A stretch of DNA of 64,000 bases from Escherichia phage vB_EcoM_SQ17. Position numbers and translations under genes: made by a program. Shown piece by piece: positions 43,386 through 49,815 of the stretch. Numbering within the stretch: the first letter of the stretch is position 1; each line of letters begins with the position of its first letter. The stretch lies in sequence record MW882907; one strand, given 5' to 3'. The notes below the pieces were generated by a model. It did not search any database and was not told the origin of the DNA. It saw only the letters and a program-made list of their open reading frames with translations.

Positions 43386-43598
43386 TTAACCGAACTTTTT
43401 AGCGCCTTTCCAGCCTTCGTACATAACTGCACAAGTCAGTAATACAGCGTGCTGGCATTCTTTGTATTTGTAAATCCAGAACCAGCGTAAGAAGTCTTCG
43501 TCCTCAACGCCGTTGAGTTTCATATTGGCAAAGAATTCGGCACGTTCTTCACGAAGTTGCCATGACACAATATTTTCAGGATTCATTTTGTGTTCCAC
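43386..43598 (-). CDS. hypothetical protein
   Basis: 70 aa ORF. Confidence 0.4.
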   Translation of the reverse strand: MEHKMNPENIVSWQLREERAEFFANMKLNGVEDEDFLRWFWIYKYKECQHAVLLTCAVMYEGWKGAKKFG

Positions 43599-43810
43599 GC
43601 CCCATTTTCATCGATGAACTTAATCCAGTCATTTACAGACCATTTAGTTGTATCACCCTTTGGATTAGCATTTAAAGTATATAATCCCTGCTTAAAAAGC
43701 ATTCGTTTGATATTCATAATTTCCTCAACTGTAACGATAACATTCGTTAGCTTTACGTTTGGCTTCAGTATGAGAAGTATTATAATCATAATCTTCTTTA
43801 CTGTAAACAT
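43583..43810 (-). CDS. hypothetical protein
   Basis: 75 aa ORF. Confidence 0.35.
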   Translation of the reverse strand: MFTVKKIMIIILLILKPNVKLTNVIVTVEEIMNIKRMLFKQGLYTLNANPKGDTTKWSVNDWIKFIDENGAWNTK

Positions 43811-44045
43811 CCTTTTTCAACTTACGAACTTCTTTGCGAAGTTGTCGATTCATTTCATTCTTGACTTCAGAATCAACGCCTTTCATACGTTTCCATTTAT
43901 CTGAGCGGAAAATGTTTTCAACCATGTCTTTGTGGCTAACACCGTCAGGAGCTTTACGTTTACCAAAATAGTCGTAATCACGAACTTTCAAATCTTTACG
44001 ACGATACGTTTTACCCATAAGTACCTCAGAGGTTGATTGATACAA
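43725..44045 (-). CDS. basic hypothetical protein
   Basis: 106 aa Lys/Arg-rich ORF; likely starts at an internal Met. Confidence 0.35.
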   Translation of the reverse strand: MYQSTSEVLMGKTYRRKDLKVRDYDYFGKRKAPDGVSHKDMVENIFRSDKWKRMKGVDSEVKNEMNRQLRKEVRKLKKDVYSKEDYDYNTSHTEAKRKANECYRYS

Positions 44046-44394
44046 TGCGTTTGATAAAATTCACTTCACTTACTGAAAGGTCTTTAAGACCGATTGATTC
44101 TAAACGCTGAGTAAGCGTCAACATTGGGATATAGTCCCAATGTGTTTTAGACGTTTGATAAGTACGGACGCCATTAGCAATTTCAACGTTCAAATCAGAA
44201 ATGGTAATGAACACCAGACGTTCGTTGTTTACATTAAGAGTTAGAACAACTTTCTTTGAATCCAAACTAATCATTTTATTTTCCTCTATAGTAGATGGTT
44301 TAATCTTAACACATCTATTGAGGATGTAAACTGTTTTATGAAAATATTTTCGATTTGAGAGGGGCACAAGGAGATAGTGAAGTGAAGATTCCAA
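44026..44394 (-). CDS. hypothetical protein
   Basis: 122 aa ORF. Confidence 0.4.
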   Translation of the reverse strand: MESSLHYLLVPLSNRKYFHKTVYILNRCVKIKPSTIEENKMISLDSKKVVLTLNVNNERLVFITISDLNVEIANGVRTYQTSKTHWDYIPMLTLTQRLESIGLKDLSVSEVNFIKRIVSINL

Positions 44395-44439
44395 TGGATT
44401 ATATTAGAAGTGAGATAAAGAAGACCAGGCGGCACCTGG

Positions 44440-44766
44440 TCAATCTTCTATGATATCAGAGTCATATCCTAATGAAATCAAGGACTTTTTAAACTCTGCA
44501 ATATTCTTTTGTTTCTTATCATTTAAAAATATGACAGGATAACGAATATTAAGTGAAGTGAATCCTGCACGTTTAGCAAGAGATACGATTAAAGGACGGT
44601 CATATTCAATCTTACCATTATTAGTGAGGACTTTATAAAATGTATAAGGAGCATTGAGCTCCTTTAAAAGTTTTGTAACAGTATAACATCCTGGACAACG
44701 TCCTACTTCTTCAGGGATGCCATAAATTTCAATCTTGTTCTTTAAGTTCGAGTTTTGTTCCACGAG
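44440..44766 (-). CDS. glutaredoxin/NrdH-like redoxin with CPGC active site
   Basis: redoxin fold motif IEIYGIPEEVGRCPGCY; no in-frame ATG anywhere in the domain; proposed GTG start at 44764-44766 preceded by AAGGA; overlaps upstream ORF. Confidence 0.5.
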   Translation of the reverse strand, partial: LVEQNSNLKNKIEIYGIPEEVGRCPGCYTVTKLLKELNAPYTFYKVLTNNGKIEYDRPLIVSLAKRAGFTSLNIRYPVIFLNDKKQKNIAEFKKSLISLGYDSDIIED

Positions 44767-45046
44767 AAATAATTCCTTGGTAAGCCCAATAAGGAGGATT
44801 AACAGAATCCTCGCCAGAGTTTTCTTCAGGAAAATAAACCTGGATAACAAATCCGGATTCATCAAAGGTAAAATAAACCGTAGGCAGTTCACCTAACAAT
44901 TCGGCACGAGCATTAATTTCTTCGAGATCTCGTTCACGTCCGGCCCAAAAACTAGGATTTAGACTACATTCATAAAAATAATAGTCATTACCGAACATAT
45001 CAAAACCTTTCCAACTCTCTACCACATACTGCTCAAAACTAATCAT
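44729..45046 (-). CDS. hypothetical protein
   Basis: 105 aa acidic ORF. Confidence 0.45.
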   Translation of the reverse strand: MISFEQYVVESWKGFDMFGNDYYFYECSLNPSFWAGRERDLEEINARAELLGELPTVYFTFDESGFVIQVYFPEENSGEDSVNPPYWAYQGIISRGTKLELKEQD

Positions 45047-45048
45047 AA

Positions 45049-45264
45049 TTAAGCCTTTTTATCAAGAACAGAATTCAGTTTATTAGTAATTTTGTCCAAA
45101 CGTTCATTGAATTCGCTGGAGGATAAACCCTTTTCAGGAGAAATTAAACTAATCACGAAAAATACAGCAGTAAAAGGAATAAGAAAAATAGCTCCAACTG
45201 CCATAAACAGAAAGAATGTTACAGTTGTAAGAAAATCAGCTAAACCTTTACGAAATTTATACAT
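45049..45264 (-). CDS. small membrane protein
   Basis: 71 aa with two hydrophobic segments. Confidence 0.4.
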   Translation of the reverse strand: MYKFRKGLADFLTTVTFFLFMAVGAIFLIPFTAVFFVISLISPEKGLSSSEFNERLDKITNKLNSVLDKKA

Positions 45265-45374
45265 ATTTACCCTTAATTAACTAAGCATTGATAAGCACTA
45301 AACTATATTGCGAATAAAATTCTGGACCAAAACGAAAAATCATATCATTTATAGTATCCATAATGTAATTCAAT

Positions 45375-45845
45375 TTAATCATGTTTCCACACCCCATCGG
45401 TATTTGACCAAAGTCGCTGATTATCTGATCCTCGCCACAGCTTTTTAGTCGGAAGATTTTTCTCATACTTCCCATCAATAATAACATCAACATATTTAAG
45501 CATTTCTAGTTGTTTAATATCTTCAAACTTATATCCTGTCCACAACCAAATGCTTTTATTAGGATAAAGATTTTTTACTGTTTGAACGATGCAATGAACA
45601 ACATCTCGGTTATCAGGATAGAGAGGGTCACCTCCGGTTATAGTCAATCCTTCTATATAATCATTATTCAAGCATTCAATTAATTGTTCTAGTGTCTCTC
45701 CAGTGAATGGAATGCCATTTCTAGCATTCCATGTTGATTTATTATAACACCCTTCGCATTTATGCAAACAACCTGTAACGAAAAGAACGACCCTGCATCC
45801 AGGGCCATTCACAAAATCGCAAGGATAAAATCTATCATAATTCAT
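45375..45845 (-). CDS. nrdG: anaerobic ribonucleotide reductase activating protein (radical SAM)
   Basis: 156 aa; CDFVNGPGCRVVLFVTGCLHKCEGCYN with the CxxxCxxC radical-SAM cluster motif; directly downstream of nrdD. Confidence 0.85.
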   Translation of the reverse strand: MNYDRFYPCDFVNGPGCRVVLFVTGCLHKCEGCYNKSTWNARNGIPFTGETLEQLIECLNNDYIEGLTITGGDPLYPDNRDVVHCIVQTVKNLYPNKSIWLWTGYKFEDIKQLEMLKYVDVIIDGKYEKNLPTKKLWRGSDNQRLWSNTDGVWKHD

Positions 45846-47150
45846 TGGTGTTTAACCCTATGCATGATTTCTTTATTTTTACCGAGATTAAATCCGCGTT
45901 CGTTCGGATTTCCCAAATAACCGCATGTTCTTCTTATAGTATTCATCTTTTTAGGATCACTTTCTCCACAAACTGAACAAACAAATCCGTTTTCAGTAGG
46001 AGTCATTTCATGGGTACTTCCACATGTAAAACATTTATCTACTGGCATATTAACACCAAAATAATCTAAATGTTGTGCAGCATAATCCCACACGGCCTCA
46101 AGACCTTTTAGGTTATTTTTCATATCAGGAAGTTCAACATAAGAAATGTGACCGCCTGTCGCAATGAAATGATATGGGGCTTCGCGAGAAATCTTTTCAA
46201 ACGGAGTAATATTTTCTTCTACTGAAACATGGAAACTATTAGTGTACCAGCCTTTATCAGTAACATCTTTTACACTTCCATATTTTTCGGTATCAAGTTT
46301 ACAGAAGCGATAGCACAGGTTTTCAGCAGGAGTAGAATACAAACTAAAAGCGAATCCGGTTCTTTCAGTCCATTGTTTAAGATGAATATTCATTTTAGTT
46401 AAAATTTCTTGTCCAATATCACGACCGACAAGAATATTCAATTCGTGAATACCAATGTATCCCAAAGACACTGAACTTCTACCGTTTTTAAATAACTCAA
46501 TTATATCGTCATCAGGTTTAAGACGAACACCGAATGCACCTTCTTGGTAAAGAATAGGAGCAACAGTAGCTTTAACACCCTTTAAAGAACTAATTCTGCA
46601 CATCAATGCTTCAAAACACAGATCCATTCGTTCATTGAATAATTCAACAAATTTCTGTTCATTGAATTGTGTTCCAATATAAGAATCTAACGCAATACGA
46701 GGAAGATTCAGTGTTACAACACCAAGATTATTACGTCCATCAAGAATTTCATTACCAGTCGAATCTTTCCATACACTCAAGAAACTACGGCAACCCATTG
46801 GAGAAACAGGAACAGATGAACCAGTGATAGCTTTATTATTCTTAACTGAAATAATATCAGGATACATTCTTTTGCTTGCACACTCTAGAGCAAGCTGCTT
46901 AATATCGTAGTTCGGGTCGTCTTTATAAAGATTGACACCCTCTTCAACGAACATAACAAGTTTAGGGAAAATAGGAGATATCCCATTGCGACCAAGACCT
47001 TTAATACGATTTTTCAGAATTGCTTTTTGAATCATTCGTTCAGTCCAGTCAGTTCCCGTACCAAATGTAATTGTTACAAAAGGCGTTTGTCCATTAGAGC
47101 TGAAAAGTGTATTTACTTCATCATTATATTCAGCATGAGTCGCAAATTCA
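45842..47150 (-). CDS. nrdD: anaerobic ribonucleotide reductase NrdD, exon 2 (3' splice boundary approximate)
   Basis: about 440 aa of class III RNR C-terminal region including the C-terminal zinc site CFTCGSTHEM...CSVCGE and glycyl-radical tail RTCGYLGNP; upstream limit set near the homing endonuclease stop. Confidence 0.7.
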
Positions 47151-47918
47151 TGCCCGTTTATATGAAACAACAAAATTTGGATAGTCCATAGATATGCAAC
47201 GTTCTTTTATAGTGCTAGGATGAAAATTTAGCGCTTTAGCTGCTTCTATATAAGACGTATACTTAATACCGTCAACAACCACATATTCAGGAACTTTATG
47301 AATAGTAGTCTTAATACTCAAAACAAGAGGATGAGTTTCGACTTCACTTTCAGTGCAATTTAAATATTCCGCTGCTTTTTTAAAACTTCTAAAAGTTTTA
47401 TTTTTAAGCTTTATCGATACTTGTTTTTTACTTTTTCGACTATTGATATTATTTTGCACATGTTCCTTAGATCTTCCGTTTTTAGCATAATATTCAGCTA
47501 CAGAAGATTTTATATTGTTTTTATGAGATTCGGATAACACTTTACCCTTATGAGCATCTCTTAATTTTTGAATATGTTCTTCAGTATCCGGATGCTTATA
47601 AAACTTTTTACCGCCTATGGATTTATTTAAACACTTTTTGCTATAAAAATATTTACGTATGACCTCTTCTTCATGTTTTAATGCATCTTTATAACTATCA
47701 AATGTTTTTAAAATTATCCATTTAGTAGGTGTATCAGTTTTTAAGCGTTCATTTATATACTTAGATGACGTTGTGTAAGTTTTCCAGTTTGTGGGCTTGT
47801 TTTTAATTGTTCTAAATTTTTTATAACCGATATAAATGTCACCATTAGAAAACTTAACTAAGTATGTAAATGCGTCTTTATCTTTTATTTTAGTACAACG
47901 TCTTTTTATCCATTTCAT
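47148..47918 (-). CDS. GIY-YIG homing endonuclease encoded within the nrdD group I intron (I-TevII-like)
   Basis: 256 aa; YLVKFSNGDIYIGY GIY-YIG motif; NUMOD3-like basic repeats; ATG preceded by GAGGTGAAACA; T4 has an intron ORF of similar size at this position. Confidence 0.75.
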   Translation of the reverse strand: MKWIKRRCTKIKDKDAFTYLVKFSNGDIYIGYKKFRTIKNKPTNWKTYTTSSKYINERLKTDTPTKWIILKTFDSYKDALKHEEEVIRKYFYSKKCLNKSIGGKKFYKHPDTEEHIQKLRDAHKGKVLSESHKNNIKSSVAEYYAKNGRSKEHVQNNINSRKSKKQVSIKLKNKTFRSFKKAAEYLNCTESEVETHPLVLSIKTTIHKVPEYVVVDGIKYTSYIEAAKALNFHPSTIKERCISMDYPNFVVSYKRA

Positions 47919-48165
47919 TGTTTCACCTCGTATTCATAAGATAATCTTATTTATACAAGATGACTGCTGCATGTCGCCATGCAGATTAGACTATATCTTC
48001 ATCTTTCGATGCCGGCCGTTTCGAATAGCATTAGCTTCTATTCTACACCGCTACATTCATCACGGTTAGTCGTTAGGCATTTAGTTCAAAAGAACATTTA
48101 GCACGGGATTGTCTACTAGAGAGGTTCCCCGTTTAGACCGGTTTTACATGAGCCTGAATTAAATT
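47150..48165 (-). mobile_element. group I self-splicing intron interrupting nrdD (boundaries approximate)
   Basis: nrdD reading frame is split into two ORFs separated by about 1 kb that contains about 240 nt of non-coding structured sequence (47920-48160) plus a homing endonuclease ORF; same arrangement as the T4 nrdD intron. Confidence 0.6.
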
Positions 48166-48704
48166 AACTCATACGCCTGGAATGCATCGTATACGTCTTT
48201 TTCTGTTTTAGATTGGGCGTAATTCAACGCATCAGCGATTTGCCATTTTTCTGCATCTTCAACATGTTTAGCGTATGTGCGTTTAACATAAGGAGAAAGT
48301 ACTTTATCTACATTAGCAAATGTAGTTCCGCCGTACTGGTGTGAAGCAACTTGTGCAGTAATTTGTGCCATAATTGCAGTAGCAACACCAATCGATTTAG
48401 GCGTTTCAATTTGAGCATTACCTAGCTTAAATCCGTTTTCAAGCATTCCTTTTAAATCTACTAAACAACAATTAGTAAATGGAAGAGCAGGGGAATAATC
48501 AATATCATGGAAATGGATAATTCCACTTTCATGTGCTTTCATAATAAAAGACGGGACCATATTTTTGGCAATGTGCTTAGACACAATACCAGCCATAAGG
48601 TCCCGTTGAGTTGGAAAAACACGAGAATCTTTATTAGCATTCTCGTTCAAAAGATCTTTATTAGTTTTATGAATTAATCCTTCAATTTCTTTTTCAATTT
48701 TCAT
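48159..48704 (-). CDS. nrdD: anaerobic ribonucleotide reductase NrdD, exon 1 (5' splice boundary approximate)
   Basis: 181 aa N-terminal segment; in-frame stop at 48159-48161 lies inside the intron; start abuts gene 49 stop. Confidence 0.7.
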   Translation of the reverse strand: MKIEKEIEGLIHKTNKDLLNENANKDSRVFPTQRDLMAGIVSKHIAKNMVPSFIMKAHESGIIHFHDIDYSPALPFTNCCLVDLKGMLENGFKLGNAQIETPKSIGVATAIMAQITAQVASHQYGGTTFANVDKVLSPYVKRTYAKHVEDAEKWQIADALNYAQSKTEKDVYDAFQAYELI

Positions 48705-49174
48705 TTTAAACTCTTTTTAAGCTGCTTTTTGAATGAAGCTATTAATTGTGTTTTGGTATCAGATTCATTATATTCAAATCCTCTTTGAAGCATCTCAGCC
48801 ATCATTTCCTCTTTACCTAGTCTTGAGAACTCTTTAGTTTTGTCTGGAACAAAATTAGGATGGATATTATTATCAGAATAATCTTGTTTCAAATAAGCAA
48901 GAAGAGCTTCAAGCCATTCGAGGTAGTCGACATCACGTCCTTTAAGACCGGAACGGTTGAACTTATGCTTCATTTGACCTTCTGCTGCATTGCACAGATT
49001 ACAGAGTAACCCACGAACTCTACCTGCTTTTGGCCCGTTTAATTCATGGTCGTGGTCAAGATGGTTACCTTGAACATCAGGGTCTAATTCACGGTGGCAA
49101 ATAGGACACTTACCATTCTGTGCATCATAAAATTTTTGTTTTTCTTCTTTGTATAATTTGCCAGATAATAACAT
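48701..49174 (-). CDS. 49: endonuclease VII (Holliday junction resolvase)
   Basis: 157 aa; nearly identical to remembered T4 gp49 (MLLTGKLYKEEKQKFYDAQNGKC..., zinc-binding CxxC pairs). Confidence 0.9.
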   Translation of the reverse strand: MLLSGKLYKEEKQKFYDAQNGKCPICHRELDPDVQGNHLDHDHELNGPKAGRVRGLLCNLCNAAEGQMKHKFNRSGLKGRDVDYLEWLEALLAYLKQDYSDNNIHPNFVPDKTKEFSRLGKEEMMAEMLQRGFEYNESDTKTQLIASFKKQLKKSLK

Positions 49175-49202
49175 AATAAACCCTTACCATATTAGATAAG
49201 GG

Positions 49203-49210
49203 TATTTATA
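49203..49210 (-). promoter_or_regulatory. T4 late promoter TATAAATA upstream of gene 49
   Basis: minus strand TATAAATA about 30 nt upstream of the gene 49 ATG. Confidence 0.45.
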
Positions 49211-49212
49211 AT

Positions 49213-49392
49213 TTAATAAATGTTATAAAAGTCACGATGGAAACGTTTGTATTGGCGAATCATTCTTTTAGTAGGACGTGTTACCGAAATGATTGAAGTC
49301 CTCATGTTCGGATTGTTTGGAGCACCAATTATAACAAATTTCCAAGATTTTTGTCCGTTTGTTCTTTCGCCAAAAAATAATGCAGTTTTCAT
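49213..49392 (-). CDS. small basic protein (59 aa), paralog of 49817-49987; absent from ORF track
   Basis: hand translation MKTALFFGERTNGQKSWKFVIIGAPNNPNMRTSIISVTRPTKRMIRQYKRFHRDFYNIY; shares TNG/KNG ... RPTKR..R..KR.HR.FY with its paralog. Confidence 0.45.
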   Translation of the reverse strand: MKTALFFGERTNGQKSWKFVIIGAPNNPNMRTSIISVTRPTKRMIRQYKRFHRDFYNIY

Positions 49393-49401
49393 AATAAGCC
49401 C

Positions 49402-49815
49402 TTAACTTAAACGTCTTTCTAAATATTCAATGTATTCCGCTGCGGCTTGCATCAGATTACCTTCATAACCGTCATTATTTTCTTGGGCGGCTAATTTAGC
49501 TAAAGCATAAGAAATACGTTCACCTTCGAATTCGCCAAGTCCACCATCACAAACTACTTGGTCAATTTCTTCGAGTTCATCTATTGAATGGGATTCCCAG
49601 AAGCACCAAAGAGAAGTATCACGGTCATAGATGCAAAGTTTCTCACCTGTGTTCAACATCACTTCGATAATGCCATGGTCGCCATAACCATCTTCGGTAG
49701 TAGTACCAATTACCTTGATGATCGTATCTTTCTTTAATTCAGGAAACTTATCTTGGAGTTCTTCGTCTTCTTTAACAATCTTGAACCATTTACCGCGAGT
49801 TTCAGAAATATTCAT
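49402..49815 (-). CDS. hypothetical acidic protein
   Basis: start set to internal ATG at 49813-49815 (MNISETRGKWFK...); flanked by the two small basic paralogs. Confidence 0.5.
   Translation of the reverse strand: MNISETRGKWFKIVKEDEELQDKFPELKKDTIIKVIGTTTEDGYGDHGIIEVMLNTGEKLCIYDRDTSLWCFWESHSIDELEEIDQVVCDGGLGEFEGERISYALAKLAAQENNDGYEGNLMQAAAEYIEYLERRLS

Follow-up and report, generated by a model that had tools for sequence, protein, structure and literature searches.

How is a gene translated when it has no methionine codon and when its open frame runs back, out of frame, into the gene that precedes it? This question is raised by a redoxin-like coding region in the genome of Escherichia phage vB_EcoM_SQ17 (MW882907), of which a stretch of 64,000 nucleotides (hereafter, the window) was analysed. 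The window comes from a T4-like phage of the RB69/JS09 group (genus Mosigvirus): 659 phage records were matched by megablast, the best of them from Escherichia phages at 98-98.6% identity. For positions 44440-45046, the original prediction proposed two answers, translation from a GTG codon preceded by AAGGA or a programmed +1 frameshift by which the two frames would be linked. The region does contain the two predicted ORFs, one of which encodes a thioredoxin-fold protein with a CPGC motif. As argued below, the feature is very probably the nrdH gene of Mosigvirus, which would encode a separate protein of 107 aa (rather than the 108 aa first given) from a GTG codon directed by AAGGA; the 129 nt over which the frame stays open upstream of this codon would be a chance extension that is not translated.

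All the genes around this region are on the minus strand (Table 1), and the order of the block nrdD-nrdG-55.8-nrdH-55.6 in the window agrees with that in JS09 and T4. The gene immediately upstream of nrdH, which overlaps it, resembles RB69ORF082c and is referred to here as ORF082c. A G+C-rich hairpin-like sequence is also found in T4 at the same place, 3' of nrdH. Elsewhere in the block, mobC, which lies between nrdG and nrdD in T4, is absent from the window. The nrdD gene of the window (45842-48704, minus strand) comes in two parts, exon 1 (48159-48704) and exon 2, with a GIY-YIG-like ORF of 256 aa between them (47148-47918), and the stretch is collinear at 84% identity with T4 nrdD plus its group I intron and I-TevII; in JS09, nrdD is uninterrupted, although this phage is otherwise 98.5% identical to the window. 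An Rfam scan of 43500-49500 at gathering thresholds gave no match, to an intron model or to any other.

Table 1. Coordinates of features in and around nrdH in the window
Feature	Position	Strand	Basis or remark
nrdD exon 2	45842-47173	minus	
nrdG, anaerobic ribonucleotide reductase activase; operon context	45375-45845	minus	ORF list; homologue annotated in JS09 and T4
gp55.8-like small membrane protein gene, 71 aa, next upstream	45049-45264	minus	ORF list; homologue annotated in JS09 and T4
RB69ORF082c-like gene, 105 aa	44729-45046	minus	phrog_2749 match
Open frame of 150 codons with nrdH as its C-terminal 107 codons	44440-44892	minus	ORF list
Stop-free upstream extension, 43 codons (129 nt)	44764-44892	minus	judged non-coding in the nrdH frame; chance feature of the subclade
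ATG inside the extension, codon 11 of the 150-codon ORF	44860-44862	minus	used by some automated annotations to begin a 140-aa 'NrdH'
Shine-Dalgarno AAGGA, 10 nt upstream of GTG	44774-44778	minus	best anti-SD duplex of three candidate starts
GTG, putative initiation codon of nrdH	44761-44763	minus	homologous to the annotated T4 nrdH GTG; conserved
Dual-coding overlap, 35 nt, nrdH GTG to ORF082c stop	44729-44763	minus	reduced variability
nrdH CDS, 107 aa, GTG start, CPGC active site	44440-44763	minus	T4 NrdH homology, phrog_22
Terminator-like hairpin (GACCAGGTGCCGCCTGGTC then T-rich tail), overlapping the nrdH stop codon	44423-44441	minus	consensus scan

The GTG and the AAGGA of the original prediction are both present, the former at 44761-44763, three nucleotides away from the predicted 44764-44766. 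The statement that the frame lacks a methionine codon holds for the domain part, where no ATG occurs from GTG 44763 to the nrdH stop at 44442-44440, and fails for the extension, which has an ATG. Between the GTG and the CPGC motif, no canonical start codon exists in either the window or T4. When the three candidate starts are compared for their anti-Shine-Dalgarno duplexes, GTG 44763 has the best (-5.4 kcal/mol), followed by ATG 44862 (-2.4) and by the GTG at 44892, where the open frame begins (+0.1).

A homologous gene in T4, nrdH (T4p072, NP_049686, 'NrdH glutaredoxin', formerly ORF 55.7; NC_000866, 41805-42113), encodes a protein 85% identical to that of the window over 102 aligned residues, CPGC and RYPVIF being common to both. 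The two genes occupy the same place, after nrdG and 55.8 and before 55.6, have a GTG start with AAGGA, contain no Met codon, and are followed by a hairpin. In T4, the GTG is the annotated start, and an in-frame TAA is found about 3-4 codons upstream of it. The start regions, AGTAAGGAATAGTT-GTG-AAACAAAA in T4 and CCAAGGAATTATTTCTC-GTG-GAACAAAA in the window, can be aligned base for base as AAGGAAT...GTG(G/A)AACAAAA. There are, however, differences: the N-terminus of T4 NrdH is 5 residues shorter, the spacer between the Shine-Dalgarno sequence and the GTG is 6 nt in T4 versus 10 nt in the window, and, since T4 lacks ORF082c, its nrdH starts directly after the 55.8 stop without the overlap seen in the window.

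The layout of the window recurs in Escherichia phage JS09, where the DNA of the corresponding pair (JS09_0104 and JS09_0105, NC_024124) is 98.5% identical to that of the window, and where RefSeq gives a 324-nt, GTG-started glutaredoxin CDS that overlaps the end of the upstream ORF. The same 324-nt CDS is annotated in the curated Ac3 record, in which ribosome-binding sites are also marked. The JS09 annotation differs in that the upstream ORF is made to start at an internal ATG (89 aa), compared with the 105 aa of the window, whose phrog_2749 match begins at residue 1. The T4-type nrdH gene, its GTG start, and its layout are therefore already known, being annotated in T4 and in the RefSeq records of RB69-like phages, and a search of the literature found no paper on the nrdH start codon.

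Comparison with the nrdH-like genes of related phages, which had been suggested as a check, favours the GTG. At the homologous place, a GTG with AAGGA, AAGGAG or GAAGGTGG upstream is found in six genera: Mosigvirus, Tequatrovirus, Dhakavirus (WG01), Gaprivervirus (VR20), Kanagawavirus (IME523), and Mosugukvirus (PM2). Additional IMG/VR contigs share this GTG and purine-rich motif, as do two metagenomic lineages with an ORF082c no more than 66-67% identical to that of the window; indeed, both elements are kept in every examined locus that has ORF082c as well as in the T4-type loci. In distant T4-like phages without ORF082c, nrdH begins at an ATG directly before KIEIYG. The GTG start accompanies the layout in which the tail of ORF082c carries the beginning of nrdH. 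This conservation, together with the homologous annotated GTG of T4, supports translation from the GTG, which we infer to be the codon used in vivo.

The overlap with ORF082c calls for a closer look at the upstream gene. Its product matches phrog_2749, an unnamed family, from residue 1 and over profile positions 1-99 of 100 (E = 2.3e-49), and since the whole of the family is covered, ORF082c is a complete small protein that ends at its own stop codon. Both a word-indexed search (4 clusters) and an exhaustive HMM search over 1.84 billion representatives found its homologues to be stand-alone proteins of 88-105 aa; the latter gave 10 matches, eight to small proteins and two to long proteins, which were weak and were judged spurious. 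No match to the ORF082c-like protein was found in Pfam or NCBIfam. An AlphaFold2 model confidently predicts a small alpha/beta fold (pLDDT 82, pTM 0.71), for which there was no PDB match at E < 1 and for which the BFVD matches were only to uncharacterised proteins of T4-like phages.

The Shine-Dalgarno sequence and GTG of nrdH lie within the last 50 nt of ORF082c, so the two genes overlap by 35 nt in different frames. The Gln-Gly codons of YQG, a conserved motif of the ORF082c-like protein, supply the AAGGA, and the GTG spans Arg-Gly codons of this protein (cGTGGa) in the window and Arg/Cys/Ser-Gly codons across lineages. An out-of-frame overlap of this length exceeds the 1-4 nt that are commonest in phages, which counts against initiation at this GTG. 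In the mechanism proposed here, initiation directed by the Shine-Dalgarno sequence would occur at the GTG, 35 nt inside the 3' end of ORF082c, and would yield NrdH as a separate 107-aa protein; translation of ORF082c may keep the start site accessible, a form of coupling, and the weak GTG start might tune the expression of NrdH. The conservation of a weak start and the embedding of the start signals in ORF082c suggest a modest expression of NrdH that is possibly coupled to the translation of ORF082c.

The limits of the second coding frame can be read from the variation among close relatives. Substitutions in ORF082c fall mainly at its third codon positions, of which 22/51 are variable before the extension and 14/37 inside it (p = 0.67). 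From the Shine-Dalgarno sequence to the ORF082c stop, in contrast, only one of 18 is variable, versus 36/88 in the two upstream regions combined (p = 0.003), and when all sites are considered, the figures are 2/53 versus 45/265 upstream (p = 0.01). Since it is only at the Shine-Dalgarno sequence that ORF082c begins to lose synonymous variability, a second frame constrains the DNA from the Shine-Dalgarno/GTG region and not further upstream.

It remains to explain why the nrdH frame is open so far into ORF082c. This frame is +1 relative to ORF082c, as had been proposed, and is open for 164 nt of that gene (44729-44892), slightly more than the 160 nt first estimated. In the long ORFs of the window, stops make up 6.2% of the +1-frame codons; a stop-free +1 run of 43 codons upstream of a given point has a p of about 0.06 (empirically, 958 of 15609 positions), and 69 such runs exist in the window, so the long open overlap is no more than would be expected by chance. 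A stop interrupts the nrdH frame 3 codons ahead of the GTG in VR20 and in another locus, L005 (about 3-4 in T4), 9-10 codons ahead of it in IME523, 10 in WG01, and 14-15 in two further loci, L053 and L054. The open extension is present only in the window's own subclade, in which ORF082c is 90-99% identical. All 11 of the close relatives examined keep the 150-codon open frame, but these relatives are 90-99% identical, so this retention reflects shared ancestry. A comparison of 11 distinct close relatives shows 19 variable sites in the extension, most of them at third codon positions of ORF082c; 18 of the 19 change the residue in the +1 frame and only five change that of ORF082c. By these comparisons, the extension is non-coding in the nrdH frame and is a product of chance.

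Several other explanations have been considered, one of which draws on a single genome. In Pectobacterium phage PM2 (NC_028940.1, 41901-42500; positions 501-1100 of locus L052), ORF082c and nrdH are in one frame of 199 aa annotated as 'glutaredoxin', the only in-frame fusion seen among the matches sampled. The PM2 junction (about 775-790 of L052) reads ...TCTAGTGGAAAAAAATATCCTAAAATTGAA..., and it has the conserved Shine-Dalgarno sequence and the GTG, immediately followed by an A7 run. The addition of one A to PM2 would restore the standard layout, with ORF082c ending in ...SSGKKIS before its stop and nrdH starting GTG-E-K-K-Y-P-K-I-E-I-Y-G. The single frame of this one genome is most likely a homopolymer length error or a recent indel. 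It could instead be that ORF082c and NrdH are functional partners whose coding regions are interlocked, with the Shine-Dalgarno sequence and GTG lying in the YQG-I-I-S-R-G tail, and which occasionally form one polypeptide; the PM2 gene would then be a real fusion or a slippage-prone site. We consider this idea improbable, and PM2 is the one observation that keeps any fusion alive, at a low probability.

The PM2 fusion protein was used as a tblastn query. In every sampled phage record that has both halves, with the exception of PM2, the halves are in two frames; the query is covered to 80% or more in 543 records, and about 850 of the 1397 matching records did not match both halves, those sampled among them matching the nrdH half alone. 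The frame break is accordingly real and conserved rather than an error of sequencing, and NrdH works by itself.

Another possibility is that nrdH starts at the ATG at 44862-44860, which would give a 140-aa NrdH with a hydrophobic N-terminal extension of 33 residues. The window and all 11 close relatives have this ATG, and it has been chosen by automated pipelines (MZ234025, ON528725, OL741432). It has, however, no Shine-Dalgarno sequence (-2.4 kcal/mol), and its presence is dictated by codons that ORF082c conserves for FD(E/A)S, namely those of Asp-Glu/Ala. The residues that it would add vary freely, as in ARILLILLIGLT versus AMILLTRHTGLI, and in other genera the extension is closed by stops; their hydrophobicity is probably what an off-frame reading of A+T-rich sequence yields. 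The choice of this ATG also makes annotators drop the conserved ORF082c. The ATG is probably unused, and the 140-aa protein is very improbable.

The programmed +1 frameshift of the original prediction would occur somewhere in the 164-nt overlap and join ORF082c to the redoxin frame in a fusion of about 200 aa. The openness of the redoxin frame in +1 across these 164 nt, its persistence in 11 close relatives, and the single frame that encodes both domains in PM2 are what this proposal has in its favour. The open extension, however, is missing in the seven lineages named above (T4, L005, VR20, WG01, IME523, L053, and L054), an open +1 run of 43 codons has a p of about 0.06, and the extension has no +1-frame coding constraint, the third positions of ORF082c being as variable inside it as before it (p = 0.67). 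Neither a conserved shift-prone site in the alignments nor a stable RNA structure in the region (fold z = +1.2) was found, and the stop of ORF082c moves (103 or 105 aa) and has a different context in different genera. In addition, members of the ORF082c family occur by themselves, at 88-105 aa, in the search of 1.84 billion representatives, and nrdH exists without ORF082c in T4, T6, and the sampled phages of Klebsiella, Aeromonas, and Acinetobacter. The only likeness to the +1 frameshifting of the RF2 (prfB) type is a downstream frame in +1 that runs without a stop through the end of the ORF before it; unlike prfB, the window has no CUU-UGA-type shift site and no Shine-Dalgarno sequence 3 nt upstream of such a site, and its open overlap, its fused product, and its extended product are all unconserved. 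A programmed frameshift is therefore highly improbable, and the conserved GTG start, combined with the lack of any sign of such a frameshift, makes this an ordinary gene.

Equally hard to credit is initiation at a non-canonical codon nearer the first beta-strand, such as the AUU at 44733-44731. This AUU sits where distant relatives without ORF082c have the ATG of MKIEIYG, but neither the window nor T4 has a canonical start codon between the GTG and CPGC, no Shine-Dalgarno sequence is at a suitable distance, and it is the GTG and its Shine-Dalgarno sequence that are the conserved elements.

The idea that the window's frame break arose from a sequencing error (named by the original prediction as a way in which it might be wrong) or from an assembly error, the real gene being one fused ORF, can be practically dismissed: PM2 demonstrates that a one-base homopolymer difference can fuse the frames, but nothing in the window points to this, its junction has no homopolymer, the ORF082c stop and the nrdH GTG are both conserved, and, among the matches listed, all the phage records covering both genes except PM2 have two frames.

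The 107-aa product of the GTG start can now be considered as a protein. It matches phrog_22 ('thioredoxin domain', E = 1.2e-15), and Pfam Glutaredoxin (PF00462) gives it 21.0 bits, below the gathering cut-off of 22.9 (E = 3.8e-4). In the NrdH alignment, KIEIYG...RCPGC and RYPVIF (the cis-Pro region) are invariant and align to T4 glutaredoxin, which is the closest solved structure by sequence (1ABA/1AAZ). Since residue 3 of the latter aligns with residue 12 of NrdH, the GTG product holds the whole fold. This T4 glutaredoxin or 'thioredoxin', NrdC (PDB 1AAZ, 1ABA, 1DE1, 1DE2), is nevertheless a distant relative (E = 0.01, with an alignment from the first beta-strand through CxxC to the cis-Pro): it has CVYC in place of CPGC, is 87 aa long, and is encoded by a separate gene at another locus. 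NrdH is, to judge from these matches, a divergent thioredoxin-fold protein.

The bacterial NrdH-redoxin family, the electron donor of class Ib ribonucleotide reductase (NCBIfam GlrX_NrdH), has the motifs CVQC and WSGFRP. The protein of the window has CPGC and lacks WSGFRP, and an NCBIfam scan with it found no NrdH model, the sole match being to a YruB-type glutaredoxin-like model at 13.6 bits (cut-off 88.55). Membership of the bacterial family was consequently rejected: the name is common to the two, the family is not. The RefSeq record of T4 notes that NrdH is 'related to T4 thioredoxin but has glutaredoxin activity', and nrdH has been listed among the quasi-core auxiliary-metabolism genes (nucleotide metabolism) of T4-related phages (PMC2993671). 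From this note, this listing, and its position beside nrdD and nrdG, NrdH is a putative thiol reductant tied to the ribonucleotide reductase genes of the phage.

The public annotations of nrdH disagree with one another. In the window and five related loci, the gene is given 107 aa when started at the GTG, 140 aa when started at the ATG in ORF082c, or else 82-88 aa. In the records examined, the 140-aa calls (ESh15, Isf-Pm2, 172859UKE1) leave ORF082c unannotated. The short calls are those of WG01 (88 aa) and VR20 (82 aa); that of WG01 probably begins at the Met located two codons ahead of CxxC, so that the first beta-strand would be lost. The comparisons made here show that the model to keep is that of 107 aa from the GTG. 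This conclusion has little biological weight, its practical value being to correct an inconsistent public annotation of nrdH.

Some variants of the overlap deserve mention. The stop of ORF082c is mobile (44729-44737 in the window, compared with five related loci), a change of CAA to TAA placing it two codons earlier (103 versus 105 aa); in nrdH this change is synonymous (AAC to AAT). In one ORF082c variant from a Logan assembly, P0002 (101 aa), the C-terminus, NYFSWNKTQT, reads the third frame from the YQG motif onward, which is due to an indel or a misassembly around the start of nrdH in this sample. In Shigella phage CT01 (Tequatrovirus, OK018184; positions 612-875 of locus L016), a deletion has produced an in-frame fusion of gp55.8 with the 26 C-terminal residues of ORF082c (...KLNSVNPPYWAYQGIISRGTKLELKE, followed by the stop). 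The part of ORF082c that is kept in this fusion is exactly that which carries the Shine-Dalgarno sequence and GTG of nrdH, and the layout of CT01 looks like an intermediate between the RB69 type and the T4 type.
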